In this document: positions 82 through 30,881 of the stretch, piece by piece
Layout of the letters: each line of letters starts with the position of its first letter
Numbering within the stretch: the stretch's first letter is position 1
Notes under the pieces: generated by a model
What the model saw: only the letters and a program-made list of their open reading frames with translations
Databases searched by the model: none
Told to the model about the DNA's origin: nothing
UHGV virus genome: UHGV-1541349
DNA length: 35,932 nucleotides
DNA from: a virus
Direction: 5' to 3' (one strand)
Position numbers and translations under genes: made by a program

Positions 82-447
82 TTATTTGTCCAAGATTCTA
101 TCCATAATATTTCTTAGTTCTTGTCTGGTTGATTCTATTTTAGCAAGCAACGTTTTGATCAATGAGGGTGAAAAATCAACTGTGCGTGGATCGTTAGCTA
201 ACCACAGTTTAAGTAACCCACCAAGTCGACCAAGATCAGCATTTACTCGGCTAAGCTCTACAACCTGTTCAATATCTACAATAGACTCAACCTGATAACC
301 CATTGCTACTTTACGAATGAAGCTCGCTACACTTAAGCCAGATGCTTCTGCATTTTCCTGGATTTGCGCTTTTTCATCTGGCAAACAATAAACTTTAATT
401 GGTGTACTATTTTTTCTAGTCTGAGAAACGGTCATATCATTCTCCAT
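82..447 (-). CDS. Ribbon-helix-helix relaxosome accessory protein, MobC-like (putative)
   Basis: N-terminal RHH-like segment (IKVYCLPDEKAQIQENAEASGLSVASFIR) and C-terminal LGRLGG motif resembling the MobC family. Family assignment is from motif recall only. Any relaxase partner would lie beyond the window start. Confidence 0.4.
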   Translation of the reverse strand: MENDMTVSQTRKNSTPIKVYCLPDEKAQIQENAEASGLSVASFIRKVAMGYQVESIVDIEQVVELSRVNADLGRLGGLLKLWLANDPRTVDFSPSLIKTLLAKIESTRQELRNIMDRILDK

Positions 448-717
448 ACAGGCGGTAGCCGATCAGCCTCGCAGAGCAGGACTCCGTTGAGCAGCCCAGC
501 TGCTAATAAGAGAAGGTAAAGTAGAAGCACCGTTTACGGTGGGCCTACTTTACATGTCCTGCCCTACATTTGCCGTTGTGAATCTGTGTACGTATTGTGT
601 ATTCCTGTGTACTCAGTGTGTTTTCCTAAAGCATTTGTGCAGGATTAGTAGTGTAAAAATGTGCAGCATATGTGTTTATTGGAAGGGAAATTATTTGAAT
701 GACCCTAAGAAATATTT

Positions 718-1011
718 TTATTCTCGCGGCTTGGGTTTTGGCGGCCTGCCACGTTTCCTTTGAAACCTATTTATCTCTTTCGCTATATCGTCATTTTCTG
801 TCTTTGACTCAACAGATTTATCTATCCAATCCTTAACATCTTCTCTACGCCAGAGAAGACGTTTATTACCGGGAAGACGGCATCTTGGTGGAAGACATTT
901 TGGATTTCGCGTTGCATCACTGCGGATACTTTTTACAGTTTTCTTTAATGCAAAAGCCAACTCTTCAACGGTTATAAGTTCTGGCATAACTGATTTCATC
1001 GAAGAACCCAT
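718..1011 (-). CDS. AlpA-family HTH regulator / excisionase-like DNA-binding protein
   Basis: Small basic protein with an AlpA/Xis-like HTH (ITVEELAFALKKTVKSIRSD...LPGNKRLLWRREDVKDWID). Typical of integrative elements. Exact start uncertain. Confidence 0.55.
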   Translation of the reverse strand: MGSSMKSVMPELITVEELAFALKKTVKSIRSDATRNPKCLPPRCRLPGNKRLLWRREDVKDWIDKSVESKTENDDIAKEINRFQRKRGRPPKPKPRE

Positions 1012-1036: not shown

Positions 1037-1058
1037 AGCGGCTAAAATTTTAGCCGCT
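1037..1058. promoter_or_regulatory. Perfect 22-bp palindrome (agcggctaaaattttagccgct), candidate operator upstream of the AlpA-like gene
   Basis: Read directly from the sequence, 26 bp upstream of the AlpA-like start at 1011. The operator role is inferred. Confidence 0.4.
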
Positions 1059-1311
1059 AAAGTTTGCTAACCAACGTTATGAATTGAGAATAATTAAAAC
1101 TTACTGGCAAAAAGAATAATGTCAACAGGATTTTTATTCATCGGATTTTTACTCCATATGAAATTGGTTTTATTGACCGATTTCTGAATGACACTAAGGT
1201 TTTAATAATTCCTTTAATCTTTTTGGTTATATAAAAGGTTAAAGATCAGGTTAGAGAGGTGTGGAAAAGCGATATATTCATTTGTATATTATGACAATTT
1301 TAAATTATATC

Positions 1312-1372
1312 CGTACCTCAAATGTCATGAAAGCGTACCTCATATGTCATAAAGGCGTACCTCATATGTCAT
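1312..1372. repeat. Three tandem 17-bp direct repeats (cgtacctcaWatgtcat) with 22-bp phasing; iteron-like
   Basis: Copies at 1312-1328, 1334-1350 and 1356-1372 inside a roughly 900-bp AT-rich non-coding stretch. A consensus DnaA box (ttatccaca, minus strand) lies at 1422-1430. Confidence 0.8.
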
Positions 1373-1920
1373 ATAATAAAAAATAAGCAAACAAGTTATA
1401 CACAATATTATTCACAGAATCTGTGGATAAATACACAGATTATACATGATAAAATAGATTGTTTAGCTAAACTAAATAGCAATAAATAAAATGAAACAAA
1501 ATGTAAATAACAGAGAGTTGTAGATAACTTATAAATTTGGTTAGCTAACCTTTATAAGAAACACTGTTTGTAAAAGATTCATTTCTGACAACGGATATAT
1601 CGAAATTTAGTAAGTAAAATGCCACAGCTAAATCTTTTATATCATTTGTTTAGCTATACTATTTTTACTAAGGGTTATGTATATCTAAACTACAAAAACA
1701 GCAATGCAAAAGATAAACGGGTAACAATCGTAGAAAAGCTTTGTTGCTGAGGGGTTACCCTCATTGGAAACCGGCTTGAGATAAGTATCATATGAGGATA
1801 TCAAATCCGACTGGTGAGGCCAGGTTTGATAATTTGAAGCGCTGGACGTAGCGTAGATGCCACAATAGAGGAGACAATAGTAAATTAAATTATAAGATAA
1901 ATGCAGATTTTTGTTTCGCT

Positions 1921-2499: not shown

Positions 2500-4989
2500 T
2501 TAATGTTCAATATCTATTTGATTATCAATTTGAATAATGTTTTGAATCTCACTGTAAATATCAATGTTCTCATCTGGTACATCTATGCTAACCAATAAAC
2601 TATATTTAACATTGTTAATATAGCGATCCTGCGCAGTACGATATTTCCACCATCCACCAACAGGATAGACAGCGATAGTATTCATCTCTGTTAAATCTGC
2701 AGCACTGCCTTTCCAAGCATCTGAGTGTAATGAACCTCTAACTCTGAGTTGAGGCCCCAGAAACCATCCTGACGCATCTCCTTCAGGTCCATTGTATTCT
2801 TCATTATTCGCATTACGGTTTATCGAAGCACGGAAATTTTCAAGGGTCTGATTAGGTCTAATAACTGCAAATCTCAATCCATGAGATTGATACGAATATT
2901 GTCGTCTGAATCCTTTTTGACTTGGATTAGGTTCAATAAAATACGACAATGTGATTCTTAAAATAACATTTGTTTCTGGTGGTAGTAAGCGAAGAGCTTC
3001 TACGGGCCAAGGGAGTGAAAACAGATGCATTTCATTCAATGTAGGATCAGTAGAACCATCTCTTTTAAATGGGGTGATTTCCGACTGAGATATTAATGTA
3101 AGTGCATTTTCCGCACTATGCATTGCTCGATTTAAATTAGGTACTCCATAACCAACCATCCTTAATAAGCTTTCTTTAGCCGATTTTGGTGTCCCCTGTG
3201 CACGTTCTGTTCTATATCGTTCGTGCATACGACTAGTCCATCTTGCTGTATGAACAAGTAATCCCCTAATAGTTTCAGGCCAATATTCTGGGTACTGAGC
3301 CATTAGCATAGCAGCATGTTTTGATACTAGAGCACAGGCTGCGCTAGTATCTGAATTAACTTCAAACAATTGATTTGTTGCCCTGCCAGAGGTTGTGAGC
3401 AAAGATAATTCAATTGTATTTGTGATTTCATCACGGCTAGGTGATATAAGTTTGTTTCCGCCTTCCTCTACTAAATCTGGCTTATATGGGGCATGCTTTT
3501 TCCATCCCCAGGATACCGATGACCGAGATGACGGTGCAATATCTTCTGACATAGCGAAAGGAGACCAACCATCATATTCGCGGTCTGTATGGGTTGTTTT
3601 ATCAGTATACGCCCCTACAGTTAATGCATTCCAAGATTGAGCAGGATCTTCAATTTCAGCAAGAGTCACTGAATCCCAATAATCTAATTCTAAATTTGTA
3701 GGTTGAGAGTTACCCGCAGAAATTATAAATAATCTGCGGATATCATCCTCTAAACCAAAACTAAACTTGTCAATCTCTGCAGACCATGAGGACGGTTGGC
3801 CTCCAAGAGTATTAGGCTCTGCTGTCACAGCAAGCGAATAAACTCTGCGCCAGTTCGGGTTTTCCAGCTCCAGACGACTTGACGTTCCTGTAGTAATAGC
3901 TCCATAAAGATTAGGATCATTAGTAGCTCTTGGAGGTAGTATCCTTCCTGATTCGATATTGTACGGAATCGAAATGTCCTGATCGTTCAATAAAACAGAC
4001 AGGAAATCTCCATAAACACATAGTCCTGCTTGTCTGGAACCGTGGTCATTATAAGGCCTTTGATTATAATCATCGAAAAGTGGCCAAGATATGTCCCAAG
4101 CAGCTGCCAGTGATGAGTTAGTAAATCTAGATAATAGTGGATTATTGTAGTTAACACCTGTATCTAATATACAAACAGAAACATCAGCTTCATTGTTACG
4201 CGTAATTCTTGCAGCAACATTTTCTGCCCACTGATGCTGTTCTGTAGGTAAGGAATTAACTATAACTGATATATCATCCCTCGCTGATCTTATCTCTTTT
4301 AAATTAGATATTAATTCAGGACAAACTTTTAATCTCGATAGACTCGTACGGATAAGAACAACAGTAGTATCGAAAAAATTAATAGAAGTATTCCCGAGCC
4401 TTCCATTAATTCTTTCGCATAAACGCCGAGCAATATTTAGCACATCCTCCTTATTACCCTTAAGCCAAAGCTCAAACCACTTTTCAACACCGTGATCATC
4501 CGGAATAAGATCTTTTTTATCTGTCCAGAAAGAAGTTATATCTGCTAACTCGATATTTTGTATGCTATCAATTAACAAATGATTTCTAGGGAACTCGATA
4601 CCATCCTTCGATGGATTCAAATAGTCATTTATTTTTTTAGTGAATTTAGTTCTGTCATTTTCATTAATGTATATAATCGCAGTTTCACGATTATTTGATT
4701 TAACTAAAGAACAAAGCTTGAAATAAGTATTATCGATTTTATCTATAGGAAGATCGCATTGTTCAAAACTGATTAGCCTAACATAAATCCCTTTTTCATC
4801 AGTAACAGGGGGAAGCCTCGGTCTTTCATCATAATGATTCAATATACGGCTATACTGATTTAGTAATGATATACCATGTACCGCTCGATCACGAGCTGGG
4901 ACTTGGGGACTACGACCATTGCTCCTAGAGCGATAGTTTTCGGGGGAAACATAGCCGTTTAATAAAATATGCCTCTTGTTGGTAGTCAT
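2500..4989 (-). CDS. ietS: Subtilisin-like S8 serine peptidase with N- and C-terminal extensions (IetS-like)
   Basis: S8 catalytic motifs in the correct order: D (VCILDTGVN), H (NDHGSRQAG), S (DTSAACALVSKHAAM). Lies 9 bp downstream of an AAA ATPase on the same strand, the architecture of the IetAS defense pair. Symbol is by architecture only. Confidence 0.7.
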   Translation of the reverse strand: MTTNKRHILLNGYVSPENYRSRSNGRSPQVPARDRAVHGISLLNQYSRILNHYDERPRLPPVTDEKGIYVRLISFEQCDLPIDKIDNTYFKLCSLVKSNNRETAIIYINENDRTKFTKKINDYLNPSKDGIEFPRNHLLIDSIQNIELADITSFWTDKKDLIPDDHGVEKWFELWLKGNKEDVLNIARRLCERINGRLGNTSINFFDTTVVLIRTSLSRLKVCPELISNLKEIRSARDDISVIVNSLPTEQHQWAENVAARITRNNEADVSVCILDTGVNYNNPLLSRFTNSSLAAAWDISWPLFDDYNQRPYNDHGSRQAGLCVYGDFLSVLLNDQDISIPYNIESGRILPPRATNDPNLYGAITTGTSSRLELENPNWRRVYSLAVTAEPNTLGGQPSSWSAEIDKFSFGLEDDIRRLFIISAGNSQPTNLELDYWDSVTLAEIEDPAQSWNALTVGAYTDKTTHTDREYDGWSPFAMSEDIAPSSRSSVSWGWKKHAPYKPDLVEEGGNKLISPSRDEITNTIELSLLTTSGRATNQLFEVNSDTSAACALVSKHAAMLMAQYPEYWPETIRGLLVHTARWTSRMHERYRTERAQGTPKSAKESLLRMVGYGVPNLNRAMHSAENALTLISQSEITPFKRDGSTDPTLNEMHLFSLPWPVEALRLLPPETNVILRITLSYFIEPNPSQKGFRRQYSYQSHGLRFAVIRPNQTLENFRASINRNANNEEYNGPEGDASGWFLGPQLRVRGSLHSDAWKGSAADLTEMNTIAVYPVGGWWKYRTAQDRYINNVKYSLLVSIDVPDENIDIYSEIQNIIQIDNQIDIEH

Positions 4990-4997
4990 TTCATCCC

Positions 4998-5984
4998 TTA
5001 TTGTCTACTTTCTTGCCTACGCTTTATAGCCTTTACTAACAAATCGGTTGTAATATTGTTTGCATTATAAAGCACTGATTCTTTGGCAGCATCTTCACTT
5101 GCTCGCGTGATCTCCGCTGCACTTAGACCTGAAGCACTATCAATGATCTCACTCCAAAATAAATTACCGAGGTCAAAGACAGCGAGTCTCTGTTCAATAA
5201 GATTCCTGATTAGATTATCCTCAGGCCTTGTGAACGGTATAATATCGTCAAATCGTCTATATAAGGCGCGATCTAAAAGCTCTGGATGATTGGTTGCAGC
5301 TAAAACTATGCTCTCAGAATCATCCTGCTCTACAAACATTAAAAAAGAATTTAAGACCCTACGAATTTCTCCAACGTCATTCTGAGCGCCACGCTGAGTT
5401 CCTATAGCATCGAACTCGTCAAAAAAATATACAGCTCTTGTTTGCCGTATGTGGTCAAAAATTAAACGCAGCTTAGCTGCAGTTTCACCCATATAGCGAG
5501 TGATTAGATTATCTAAGACGACTGTATAAAGTGGTAGCTTTAACTCTGTAGCAATGACTGATGCGGACATTGTCTTACCAGTACCGGGAGGACCAGTGAA
5601 AAGAATTTTTCTTCTTGGAATAAGCCCAAACTCAGAAAGTTTATCTTTCTGTTTTTGTTCAAGCAGAACCTGATTCAATCTTTCCCTAACGCTTCCAGAA
5701 ATCACCAGATCTTGAAGATGTACTGGCTTGTTCGTTTGCTCAAGTAACCCCTTAAGATCACCATCAGGCTGCTTAACAAATGGTGTAAGTCGTTTTTCAA
5801 CTAAACCTACAGAACTCGTTGTTTTCTGATTTTTATCAACTAAGTTTTTTATATCATTAGCAAGCTTATGATGACCTTGCCTTGCTTCCTTAGCTGCCAC
5901 CTGCAAAGCAATAGAAAAGAAACGCTGATCATCACGATCAACGTGGCTTTTCAATAAAGCTTTGATCTGCTCTGCAGTAGCCAT
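4998..5984 (-). CDS. ietA: AAA-family ATPase (IetA-like)
   Basis: Walker A GPPGTGKT and Walker B VYFFDEFD in a classical AAA fold. First gene of a two-gene operon with the S8 peptidase. Confidence 0.7.
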   Translation of the reverse strand: MATAEQIKALLKSHVDRDDQRFFSIALQVAAKEARQGHHKLANDIKNLVDKNQKTTSSVGLVEKRLTPFVKQPDGDLKGLLEQTNKPVHLQDLVISGSVRERLNQVLLEQKQKDKLSEFGLIPRRKILFTGPPGTGKTMSASVIATELKLPLYTVVLDNLITRYMGETAAKLRLIFDHIRQTRAVYFFDEFDAIGTQRGAQNDVGEIRRVLNSFLMFVEQDDSESIVLAATNHPELLDRALYRRFDDIIPFTRPEDNLIRNLIEQRLAVFDLGNLFWSEIIDSASGLSAAEITRASEDAAKESVLYNANNITTDLLVKAIKRRQESRQ

Positions 5985-6448
5985 AACCCCTCATACTCCC
6001 TTGTTCTCTTGTTGCAAAGTTTACTATAAATTCATTTAGTTCGACATCGTTACCTACCTGCTCATTACAGGAAAGTAATACCTTCATGAGCGTATCATCA
6101 ATGATCAAAGTGTAATCAAACACCTAGGCATAGTACCTTCACTACGTGAACTGTATCACTCATTGTTATGTAACCTGAGTGTCCCTTTCTGGCACTTAGC
6201 TCTATCGGATAATGTATTTAAGCTGTTAATTTATAAGATTTTTCATCACTAAACTGTCTTTCATGCAACGCATCGATAAGGTCAACACATTACGTTTATA
6301 AGGAAGTAGTTTGTTTAGCGTAATGATGCAAATGCTGACCAATTAGCTTTGCCACAATTTTGCCACACCTACAACGCGCAAAATTGCACATTAGTGTTGA
6401 ACAAAGCAAAATACTGCAATAGTAACTTGATGATTTTACGAGAAAAGA

Positions 6449-6494
6449 TGGTGCCGATAATAGGAGTCGAACCTACGACCTTCGCATTACGAAT
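6449..6494 (-). other. 46-nt 3' fragment of tRNA-Thr (thrW-like, anticodon loop to CCA): prophage attachment-site core
   Basis: Minus-strand sequence attcgtaatgcgaaggtcgtaggttcgactcctattatcggcacca matches the 3' part of enterobacterial tRNA-Thr(CGU) as recalled, then diverges 5' of the anticodon loop. Typical of an att junction distal to the integrase. Confidence 0.7.
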
Positions 6495-6719
6495 CTGTAG
6501 CACCAATCATAACTATCTGTTTTAGCAAGCATTAACCGCATTCACTAAGTTATAGTTGATGGCACAAACAGAAAGTTGATGCATGATGTTTTCATGCGTA
6601 TGTCACAAATACGGCACAACAATCTTCAAATATGTAGACACACATCCACAGGAGAGCACAAAGCCTTGCAATACAGTGCAAAGCTTTGTGCGTATCAGTT
6701 TTGTCCTGTGCGCCGGATG

Positions 6720-30725: not shown

Positions 30726-30801
30726 TGGTGCTGGTTAACGGACTTGAACCGCTACCCATTCGCTTACAAGGCGACTGCTCTACCATTGGAGCTAAACCAG
30801 C
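30726..30801 (-). tRNA. Phage-encoded tRNA, anticodon UGU (Thr-like)
   Basis: 76 nt ending in CCA. Manual fold gives 7-bp acceptor, D and T arms, and anticodon loop CTTGTAA. Anticodon assignment is manual and unverified. Confidence 0.55.
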
Positions 30802-30806
30802 ATGTT

Positions 30807-30881
30807 TGGCGGGACAGCGTGGACTCGAACCACGATAAGAAGGTTAACAGCCTTCCGTAATGACCTTTATACGACTGACCC
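30807..30881 (-). tRNA. Phage-encoded tRNA, anticodon GUU (Asn-like), one acceptor-stem mismatch
   Basis: 75 nt ending in CCA. Perfect anticodon stem GAAGG/CCTTC with loop CTGTTAA, T-stem CGTGG/CCACG, and a T.T mismatch at acceptor pair 4-69. Confidence 0.5.

Follow-up and report, generated by a model that had tools for sequence, protein, structure and literature searches.

A putative IncP-1-type origin of transfer beside traJ in a relaxase-less chromosomal island at thrW

In this work we analyzed the intergenic stretch between a traJ gene and an AlpA-like gene near the left end of UHGV virus genome UHGV-1541349 (35,932 nucleotides; this whole stretch of DNA is called the window throughout). 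As judged by homology, positions 451-578 are an origin of transfer (oriT) of the IncP-1/RP4 type, descended from the oriT located between traJ and traK of IncP-1 plasmids. We consider it likely that they serve as the oriT of an integrative mobilizable element that is inserted at thrW and lacks a relaxase gene, with an IncP-1-like helper plasmid supplying TraI. A sequence-only reading of the window had proposed an oriT-like region at this place, and the proposal was borne out by alignments with the oriTs of RP4 and many IncP-1 plasmids, which include both the inverted repeat and the nick motif.

The oriT region and its traJ gene

In IncP plasmids the oriT is located between traJ and traK, and TraJ binds a 19-bp inverted repeat within it (PMC2848598; bioRxiv 10.64898/2026.01.12.698999); the IncP-1 nic site is 5'-ATCCTG-3' and is nicked by TraI (PMC3614916). 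A BLAST search matched positions 450-579 of the window (130 nt) at 92% identity (E = 2e-45) to the sequence between traJ and traK in conjugative plasmids of E. coli and Salmonella, which are 41-43 kb in size and have a MOBP relaxase and MPF_T, and at 90% to IncP plasmids of about 50 kb. The traJ gene itself shares only about 65-67% nucleotide identity with traJ of the same plasmids. Over positions 452-578 (127 nt) the identity was 93.7% to the oriT of pCFSA664-2, 91.3% to that of p20170604CC-2, 87.4% to pDS1, 83.5% to RP4 (taken from the RP4 integrated in the E. coli S17-1 chromosome) and 79.5% to R751. Sister islands are only 78-84% identical over the oriT core, i.e., less similar than pCFSA664-2.

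The comparison was extended to a multiple alignment of 12 oriTs, comprising five island lineages and seven plasmids (Table 1). The sequence GCCTCGCAGAGCAGGA is invariant in all 12, including RP4 and R751, and TCCTGCCC is invariant both in the 12 aligned oriTs and in all 31 loci. The nick motif GTCCTG/CCC (GTCCTGCCC; the slash marks the predicted nick) is found at 556-564 on the strand leading away from traJ, and in each of the 12 sequences the large repeat ends 8 nt before the predicted nick. We place the predicted nick at the G561/C562 bond, in line with the RP4 work of Pansegrau and Lanka. The homology between island and plasmids ends at about position 578, approximately 16 nt past the predicted nick.

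Of the features that characterize an IncP-1 oriT, we found the sequence homology, the nick motif and a repeat of about the 19-bp type near nic with an adjacent traJ (binding of TraJ is predicted); we found neither a traI gene in cis nor, on the other side, traK and the region to which its product binds. The missing traI and traK concern the autonomy of the element and leave the identity of the cis site untouched. As in RP4/RK2, the site is located upstream of traJ, with a TraJ homologue encoded alongside, and shows the order conserved block, small repeat, large repeat, 8-nt spacer and TCCTG/CCC. RP4 differs in having traI, traK, traL and traM, in its nic sequence ATCCTG, and in carrying a TraK-side region where the island has TGTGT repeats.

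The 9-bp inverted repeat pointed out in the sequence-only reading (gtaaagtag at 516-524, ctactttac at 545-553) is present, and forms the outer stem of a longer inverted repeat. The arms of the latter (516-533 and 536-553) are 18 nt each and complementary at 15 of 18 positions (83%); the outer 9-bp stem is followed by a 3-nt internal mismatch, an inner 6-bp stem and a 2-nt loop. When positions 484-575 were folded as single-stranded DNA, the predicted energy was -16.8 kcal/mol, compared with a shuffle mean of -8.9 (z = -3.64; none of 200 shuffles was equal), and the small inverted repeat formed a second hairpin in the same predicted fold. Across the 12 oriTs, 86% of the alignment cells of the two repeats are paired, as against 27-44% when the partner column was slid; changes on both sides were observed in 8 of 23 pairs, and the covariation score was reached by none of 500 shuffles. 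Compensatory double changes account for six of the 18 pairs of the main repeat. In the small repeat 95% of the cells are paired and both sides changed in two of the five pairs, the variants being CAGC with GCTG (GCAGC with GCTGC), CACC with GGTG in RP4, CCGC with GCGG in the guaA-type island L015 (described below), and CGCC with GGCG in R751. The main repeat of L015 has 17-nt arms. Repeat and nick region are perfectly kept in island lineages whose flanks are only 72-84% identical, and both the inverted repeat and the TGTGT motifs are conserved in every related island that we fetched, which argues that they are not chance features.

The gene at 82-447, directly upstream of which the region had correctly been placed, is not MobC-like as previously supposed but of the TraJ/NikA type. 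Its product matches the NCBIfam equivalog NF010451 with 163.3 bits (cutoff 134) and the Pfam family NikA-like (E = 5e-24), and it is named traJ by PGAP; the Pfam search gave no MobC (PF05713) match for this gene, only NikA-like and RHH_1. The PGAP annotation and the homologues agree on a start at 435, so that the intergenic stretch is really 436-717. The encoded protein shares 73.5% of its amino acids with TraJ of pCFSA664-2 and 50% with TraJ of RP4.

In addition, the right arm of the main repeat was found to vary together with the N-terminal strand of TraJ. The arm GGTGGGCCTAC is accompanied by the strand PIKVYC(L/F)P in the window, most islands, pCFSA664-2, pDS1, pXFAS01 and RP4, and the arm GGTTAGCTAAC by H(I/L)RVPV(L/F)P in island L020, the Salmonella plasmid S499 unnamed5 and R751. 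Outside this strand, the TraJ of L020 resembles the other island TraJ proteins, and the replaced repeat arms of L020 remain symmetrical. This co-variation in islands and plasmids is the best in silico support for the repeat as a working TraJ site, and it offers natural-variation evidence on which residues would read which bases.

The reiterated tgtgtac/ttgtgtat motifs described in the sequence-only reading are real and form the densest such cluster of the window. TGTG starts at positions 577, 585, 596, 606, 617, 636, 660 and 671, and TGTGT at 585, 596, 606, 617 and 671. Between the central four copies the spacing is 11, 10 and 11 bp, i.e., about one helical turn, and a 21-nt tandem pair occupies 584-604 and 605-625. 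The eight TGTG copies in 570-689 are the maximum for any 120-nt segment of either strand in the 35.9 kb (mean 0.29). Only 0.03% of such segments reach eight copies, all of them overlapping 570-689, and none of 10,000 shuffles did so. The repeats begin right where the plasmid homology ends, and the pattern TGTG(T/C)AC, N4, TGTGTATT, N3, GTGTA, N5, TGTGTTTT is kept in every island lineage, including those only 72-84% identical and those of other genera; at this position the plasmids have no such repeats. The TGTGT repeats are probably a site at which an accessory or regulatory protein binds or bends the DNA; the TraK of the helper, the AlpA-like protein or a host factor would be candidates. DnaA boxes were considered and set aside, as only 6-7 of 9 positions match TTATCCACA; a perfect box is located elsewhere (1422-1430).

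In the closest helper-like plasmids, three copies of ATACACA, bracketed by CCTGC and GCAGG, were observed just upstream of traK in the opposite orientation (L022, 11888-11927; L016, 1790-1830; L017, 1783-1823). ATACACA is the reverse complement of the island motif TGTGTAT; it is clustered nowhere else in those plasmids, and the triplet is not found in RP4.

Table 1. Features of the oriT region and the neighbouring part of the thrW island, in window coordinates.
Feature	Position	Strand	Remarks
traJ, ribbon-helix-helix relaxosome accessory protein (oriT-recognizing)	82..447	-	likely start 435, 117 aa
Left conserved block, GGCGGTAGCC ... GCCTCGCAGAGCAGGA	451..481	+	12-oriT alignment
Small inverted repeat, GCAGC cca GCTGC	490..504	+	predicted single-stranded DNA fold; pairing across 12 oriTs
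Main inverted repeat, 18-nt arms	516..553	+	homologous to the 19-bp RP4 oriT repeat bound by TraJ
Nick region, ATGTCCTG/CCC	554..564	+	predicted nick 561/562, 8 nt past the repeat
Last plasmid-shared stretch (..TTGCCGTTG..)	565..578	+	alignments; BLAST plasmid matches stop at about 579
Island-specific phased TGTG(T/C)A repeats, about 10.5 bp spacing	577..625	+	at the place of the plasmid TraK-side region
Remaining intergenic stretch	626..717	+	TGTGC/TGTGT copies at 636, 660, 671
Small excisionase/AlpA-like helix-turn-helix gene	718..1011	-	97 aa; PGAP start gives 93 aa
Two exact KorB operators, TTTAGCGGCTAAA and TTTAGCCGCTAAA (TTTAGCSGCTAAA)	1034-1046, 1049-1061		23-50 bp upstream of the AlpA-like gene
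AT-rich block, CTCTAACC..TTTAACC	1196-1262
Three 22-bp-spaced iterons, core TGACAT(A/T)TGAGGTACG	1312-1377
Perfect DnaA box, TGTGGATAA	1422-1430		part of the oriV-like region
Exact KorA operator, GTTTAGCTAAAC	1461-1472		part of the oriV-like region, 1196..1472 (-)
Partial tRNA-Thr (thrW 3' end), att repeat, right end of the island	6447..6496	-	exact 32-nt match

The thrW island and its relatives

The left part of the window had been interpreted as an islet that is, or derives from, a mobilizable element. It does belong to an integrative mobilizable element of approximately 11.1 kb, bounded by 51-bp direct repeats of the 3' end of the tRNA-Thr gene thrW, which in the complete island L003 are 11,084 bp apart; the islet is thus fixed as about half of a relaxase-less mobilizable island. 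From the integrase gene onward, the island has a gene for a 296-aa membrane protein, a VbhA-like gene, an open reading frame of 70 aa, trbL, a gene for a 57-aa lipoprotein at the trbK position, trbJ, traJ and the oriT. Beyond the oriT come the AlpA-like gene, 900 bp of non-coding DNA, a HigA-like gene, defence cargo that varies between copies, and thrW. The integrase is a tyrosine recombinase (Pfam Phage_integrase, E = 2.5e-26), and TrbJ and TrbL match NCBIfam equivalogs above their cutoffs. Past the island end a prophage follows in tandem (6497-35932), with its own tRNA-Thr(tgt) and tRNA-Asn at 30726-30881.

The relaxase that had been expected just beyond the window start was not there. The first base of the window adjoins the start codon of trbJ, and trbJ, the 57-aa lipoprotein gene, trbL, the small open reading frames, the membrane protein gene and the integrase gene were found instead. 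The gene content of the complete islands L003 and L013 includes no relaxase gene between the att repeats, and tblastn searches with pCFSA664-2 queries detected no TraI, TraK or TraG in 15 island loci, which shows the prediction of a relaxase to be wrong. The sequence-only reading had named two findings that would speak against its proposal, namely no relaxase in the adjacent sequence and no similarity to any known oriT: inspection of the sequence left of the window confirmed the former, and the latter proved false in view of the similarity to IncP-1 oriTs. With a guaA-type island query, tblastn found no RepA in the thrW-type loci, nor is there a rep-like open reading frame between the att repeats.

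The label "AlpA-like" for the neighbouring gene was supported at the level of PHROG profiles and not by Pfam or NCBIfam, and we therefore retain it as a weakly supported name. The gene matches PHROG 6355 (E = 2e-31) and PHROG 66, "excisionase and transcriptional regulator" (E = 1.8e-6), the latter in the part of the profile that AlpA of the guaA-type island also matches. In Pfam and NCBIfam there was no significant match (HTH_17 only at E = 0.23). We also considered a BLAST-detectable relationship to the guaA-type AlpA, which was dropped, the BLASTP value (E = 0.049) not being significant.

The cargo of the window (2500-5984) matches the IetA (ATPase, E = 5.5e-77) and IetS (S8 protease, E = 2.9e-34) anti-phage system. 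The cargo differs between copies of the island, and elsewhere this position is occupied by CBASS, SduA or ABC-three-component genes, by NACHT/STAND ATPases, or by a reverse transcriptase paired with an SMC-type ATPase. In E. coli FAM21845 (L013, 7670-10859), the gene for the 296-aa membrane protein is interrupted by an IS1-flanked segment carrying corA.

Contigs and complete genomes encoding an identical TraJ show that the window derives from the E. coli chromosome, with 100% identity over 2.4 kb to 17 complete E. coli genomes, and among 5,426 complete E. coli genomes traJ-oriT matches occur at 270 chromosomal places (thrW-type and guaA-type together). An identical TraJ is indexed in 1,903 assembly blocks, beside varied defence cargo. 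TraJ is 99% identical in two Enterobacter species, and relatives at 82-93% were found in Pseudescherichia, Dickeya, Erwinia, Shigella, Citrobacter and Phytobacter; this distribution argues for horizontal movement. From the 270 places in E. coli and the presence in several other genera, we conclude that traJ-oriT modules matter for the spread of anti-phage systems. The divergent lineage L020 (72% identical) shows the same architecture with CBASS cargo. A second architecture is located at guaA (L015 and six loci of other genera); it has, in addition, repA accompanied by its own iterons, an AlpA of 75 aa and a gene of 344 aa. This architecture agrees with the PIME family described below, and the 17-nt arms of L015 match the repeat length given for PIME1EcRHB23-C07.

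Relative to their pCFSA664-2 counterparts, TrbJ is 87%, TrbL 60% and the TrbK-like protein 33% identical. Since the oriT core is 93.7% identical while TraJ, TrbL and the TrbK-like protein are far more diverged, the module is a mosaic in which the cis site has apparently been kept matched to a helper. The 57-aa lipoprotein (L003 11254-11427, compared with L022 32643-32816) has the size and position of TrbK, the entry-exclusion protein. Such a diverged TrbK-like protein beside an 87%-identical TrbJ suggests a changed exclusion specificity.

Islands of this kind have already been described, in a 2017 review and in a preprint of January 2026, and the thrW island is related to the PIMEs (Pseudomonadota integrative mobilizable elements), GIsul2 and the IncP islands; the oriT itself is ordinary, being of IncP type and located in a known island family. 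PIMEs carry int, alpA, luxR, repA, traJ, trbJ, trbK, trbL and an IncP-like oriT, and are induced by IncP plasmids (Perta et al., bioRxiv 10.64898/2026.01.12.698999). Like them, the thrW island lies in the chromosome and combines int, an AlpA-type regulator, traJ, trbJ, trbK and trbL with large anti-phage cargo and an IncP-like oriT that has an inverted repeat of its own, but it has another integrase and site (thrW, not guaA), its core genes are opposite to int, and it lacks both a luxR-family gene and repA, with TrfA-type iterons in place of repA and its iterons. Measured against the PIME definition, we found an integrase, trbJ, trbL, an AlpA-type regulator (at the PHROG level only), an IncP-like oriT and large defence cargo, and did not find the element's own replicase, repA. 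The PIME search required a replicase, although its authors allow for variants without one core component (bioRxiv 10.64898/2026.01.12.698999); thrW-type islands would therefore have escaped it.

GIsul2 has trbJ-trbK-trbL and no relaxase, and was proposed to borrow an IncP relaxase and to reshape the mating apparatus; it differs from the thrW island in its RepA/RepC, in its guaA site and in that no TraJ was reported (Guedon et al. 2017, PMC5704250). The IncP islands of Brucella and Burkholderia are integrative mobilizable elements with IncP-related trbJ-trbK-trbL, which differ in their guaA site and in encoding their own TraI, TraJ and TraK (PMC5704250). SGI1 and the MGIs, which hijack IncC plasmids or SXT/R391 ICEs, follow the same logic of a relaxase-less island with a helper-like oriT and replacement secretion-system subunits (PMC5704250), but their helpers are MOBH/MPF_F and their oriT sequence and proteins are unrelated.

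Proposed transfer and alternative explanations

As the island has no relaxase of its own, it probably depends on a visiting IncP-1-like plasmid. The sequences show the homology, the intact and co-varying cis elements, the lack of a relaxase, the island boundaries and the occurrence in several genera; that the site is nicked, which plasmid helps, which end leads in transfer and what the TGTGT repeats do are inferred. In the proposed scheme, the island would excise from thrW as a circle, and its TraJ (82-435, minus strand) would bind the right arm (536-553). TraI from a co-resident IncP-1-like plasmid would cut the plus strand at GTCCTG/C (561/562) and stay on the 5' end, and the strand would be transferred 5' to 3' through the coupling protein and type IV secretion system of the helper. 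The leading part would comprise the AlpA-like gene, the oriV-like region and the defence cargo, and trbL-trbK-trbJ-traJ would arrive in the recipient last; in RP4, the traK side leads in transfer.

The best-matched helpers are probably enterobacterial IncP-1-like plasmids typified by pCFSA664-2 (NZ_CP033354), whose repeat and nick region are base-for-base identical to those of the island and whose TraJ N-terminal strand differs from that of the window by one residue. It differs from the island, as does p20170604CC-2 (NZ_AP025211), in being a complete conjugative plasmid with traI, traK, traG, trfA, korA, korB and a full trb set. A specific and testable helper is thereby named, and the interest of the finding lies mainly in this prediction and in the neighbouring Kor and oriV sites described below.

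Several observations weigh against a functional, helper-dependent oriT. The nic hexamer of the island begins with G (GTCCTG) and not with A, and the same G is present in three clades of conjugative plasmids. The island has neither traK nor the half of the plasmid oriT that TraK binds, and in a scan of positions 1-2000 no sigma-70 promoter that could serve traJ was predicted on the minus strand within 448-717. Furthermore, at most one of the 328 matched E. coli genomes has matches on two records (329 records), so that island and IncP-like plasmid are rarely caught together, although about three such genomes were expected and the difference is not significant. Finally, the cloned oriT and traJ of PIME1EcRHB23-C07, an E. 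coli element that has traJ, no traI and a 17-bp repeat, were mobilized only poorly when pB10 or pKJK5, both IncP-1 plasmids, acted as helper; the element itself was induced but not mobilized by them, and the authors of the preprint concluded that a different helper is needed (bioRxiv 10.64898/2026.01.12.698999). The alignment places R751 in the other arm class, with ACATCCTG. We assume that pB10, an IncP-1 beta plasmid, is R751-like in its oriT, and a mismatch of arm class then offers a candidate explanation for the failed mobilization of PIME1EcRHB23-C07.

The oriT could also be a relic, i.e., a captured IncP-1 fragment (traJ-oriT and trbJKL) that no longer serves for transfer, in an island now spreading only through vertical inheritance, transduction or recombination. 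Such a relic would suit an island that lacks a relaxase, traK and a coupling protein, the poor mobilization of the sister element's oriT by pB10 and pKJK5, and the near lack of complete E. coli genomes that contain both the island and an IncP-like plasmid. We nevertheless regard a relic as unlikely, because the repeat and nick region have stayed perfect amid flanks of 72-84% identity, the replaced arms of L020 are symmetrical, and TraJ changes with the arm. Moreover, the oriT core is closer to that of a present-day plasmid than to those of the sister islands, which points to continuing exchange or selection; near-identical modules are found across genera; and a related PIME has been mobilized experimentally (bioRxiv 10.64898/2026.01.12.698999).

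The elements of the region could also be transcription signals, the hairpin being a terminator of the AlpA-like gene or an operator for TraJ autoregulation, and the TGTGT repeats the operator of a traJ-trbJKL operon. The genes here all point in the same direction, the inner stem (528-541) scores as terminator-like on the minus strand, and the relaxosome proteins of RP4 are known to regulate the oriT promoters as well. However, the T-run is poor (CTTCTACTTT), the missing minus-strand promoter within 448-717 counts against this explanation too, and the same repeat is found in plasmids whose traK is transcribed away from it, where there is nothing to terminate. As regulation and oriT function are not exclusive, such a role would be an addition more than a replacement, and as a full explanation we consider it quite improbable. 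Hardly any room is left for a MobC-type oriT serving the element's own relaxase to the left of the window, as the sequence-only reading had it. An accessory gene at an oriT does usually precede the relaxase gene, as traJ precedes traI in the plasmids analyzed here, but in every island locus it is trbJ that lies left of traJ, and the complete islands L003 and L013 refute this version. An oriT used in trans by an IncP-1-like helper accordingly remains the explanation that we favor.

KorA and KorB operators and an oriV-like region

The non-coding region beyond the AlpA-like gene contains further sites of the IncP type (Table 1), which were recognized by the published operator consensus sequences of KorB and KorA (PMC2680271, PMC2848598, PMC3614916) and by the RK2 iterons, TGACA(C/G/T)(T/A)TGAGGGGC (PMC3273809, PMC3614916). 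Judged by its alignment, which includes the AT-rich CTCTAACCAGATCTTTAACC block, with the oriV next to trfA in pCFSA664-2, the region 1196-1472 is a putative IncP-type oriV lacking trfA. The KorB and KorA operators are conserved in all island lineages, and the Kor and oriV sites are kept even in the 72%-identical lineage; in the sister islands the iterons read TGACATATGAGGGGC. KorB/KorA operators and oriV iterons of the island type are also present in pCFSA664-2 and p20170604CC-2, and pCFSA664-2 has eight copies of the KorB operator and two of the KorA operator.

It is quite possible, and we propose it tentatively, that the thrW island mimics the cis sites of an IncP-1 plasmid on three levels, namely oriT, oriV and the KorA/KorB operators. 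If these sites work, the helper would replicate the excised island by TrfA, nick and transfer it by TraI, and regulate or partition it by KorA, KorB and IncC. A further possible effect of these sites is titration of TrfA and KorB, by which they would interfere with the helper. An origin may need more than three iterons, and titration or handcuffing of TrfA would be an alternative role. If the proposal is correct, it provides a concrete candidate for the sensing of the helper, which the PIME authors stated to be unknown, and it would explain a thrW lineage without repA. KorA, KorB and their operators are not mentioned in the PIME preprint (bioRxiv 10.64898/2026.01.12.698999), nor are TrfA, KorB and oriV in the 2017 review (PMC5704250). 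The Kor operators and the oriV suggest how defence-carrying islands could couple their life cycle to that of a plasmid.

A conserved CGGATATATCG near the oriV-like region was considered as a TrbA operator and dropped, since the palindrome CGATATATCG is absent from pCFSA664-2, RP4, R751 and pDS1. In guaA-type islands, which have their own repA and other iterons, a single TrfA-type iteron, TGACACATGAGGTAG, was observed at the homologous place (L015, 16780; L027, 6608). Another palindrome, GGTTAGCTAACC at 1539-1550, occurs unchanged in thrW-type islands and not in the plasmids, and its core resembles the KorA operator as well as the R751-type repeat arm. Finally, the HigA-family helix-turn-helix gene at 1921-2235 has no toxin partner. 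Each island lineage has a diverged form of it (41-50% amino acid identity) beside the oriV-like region, and its product may regulate the island instead of acting as an antitoxin.

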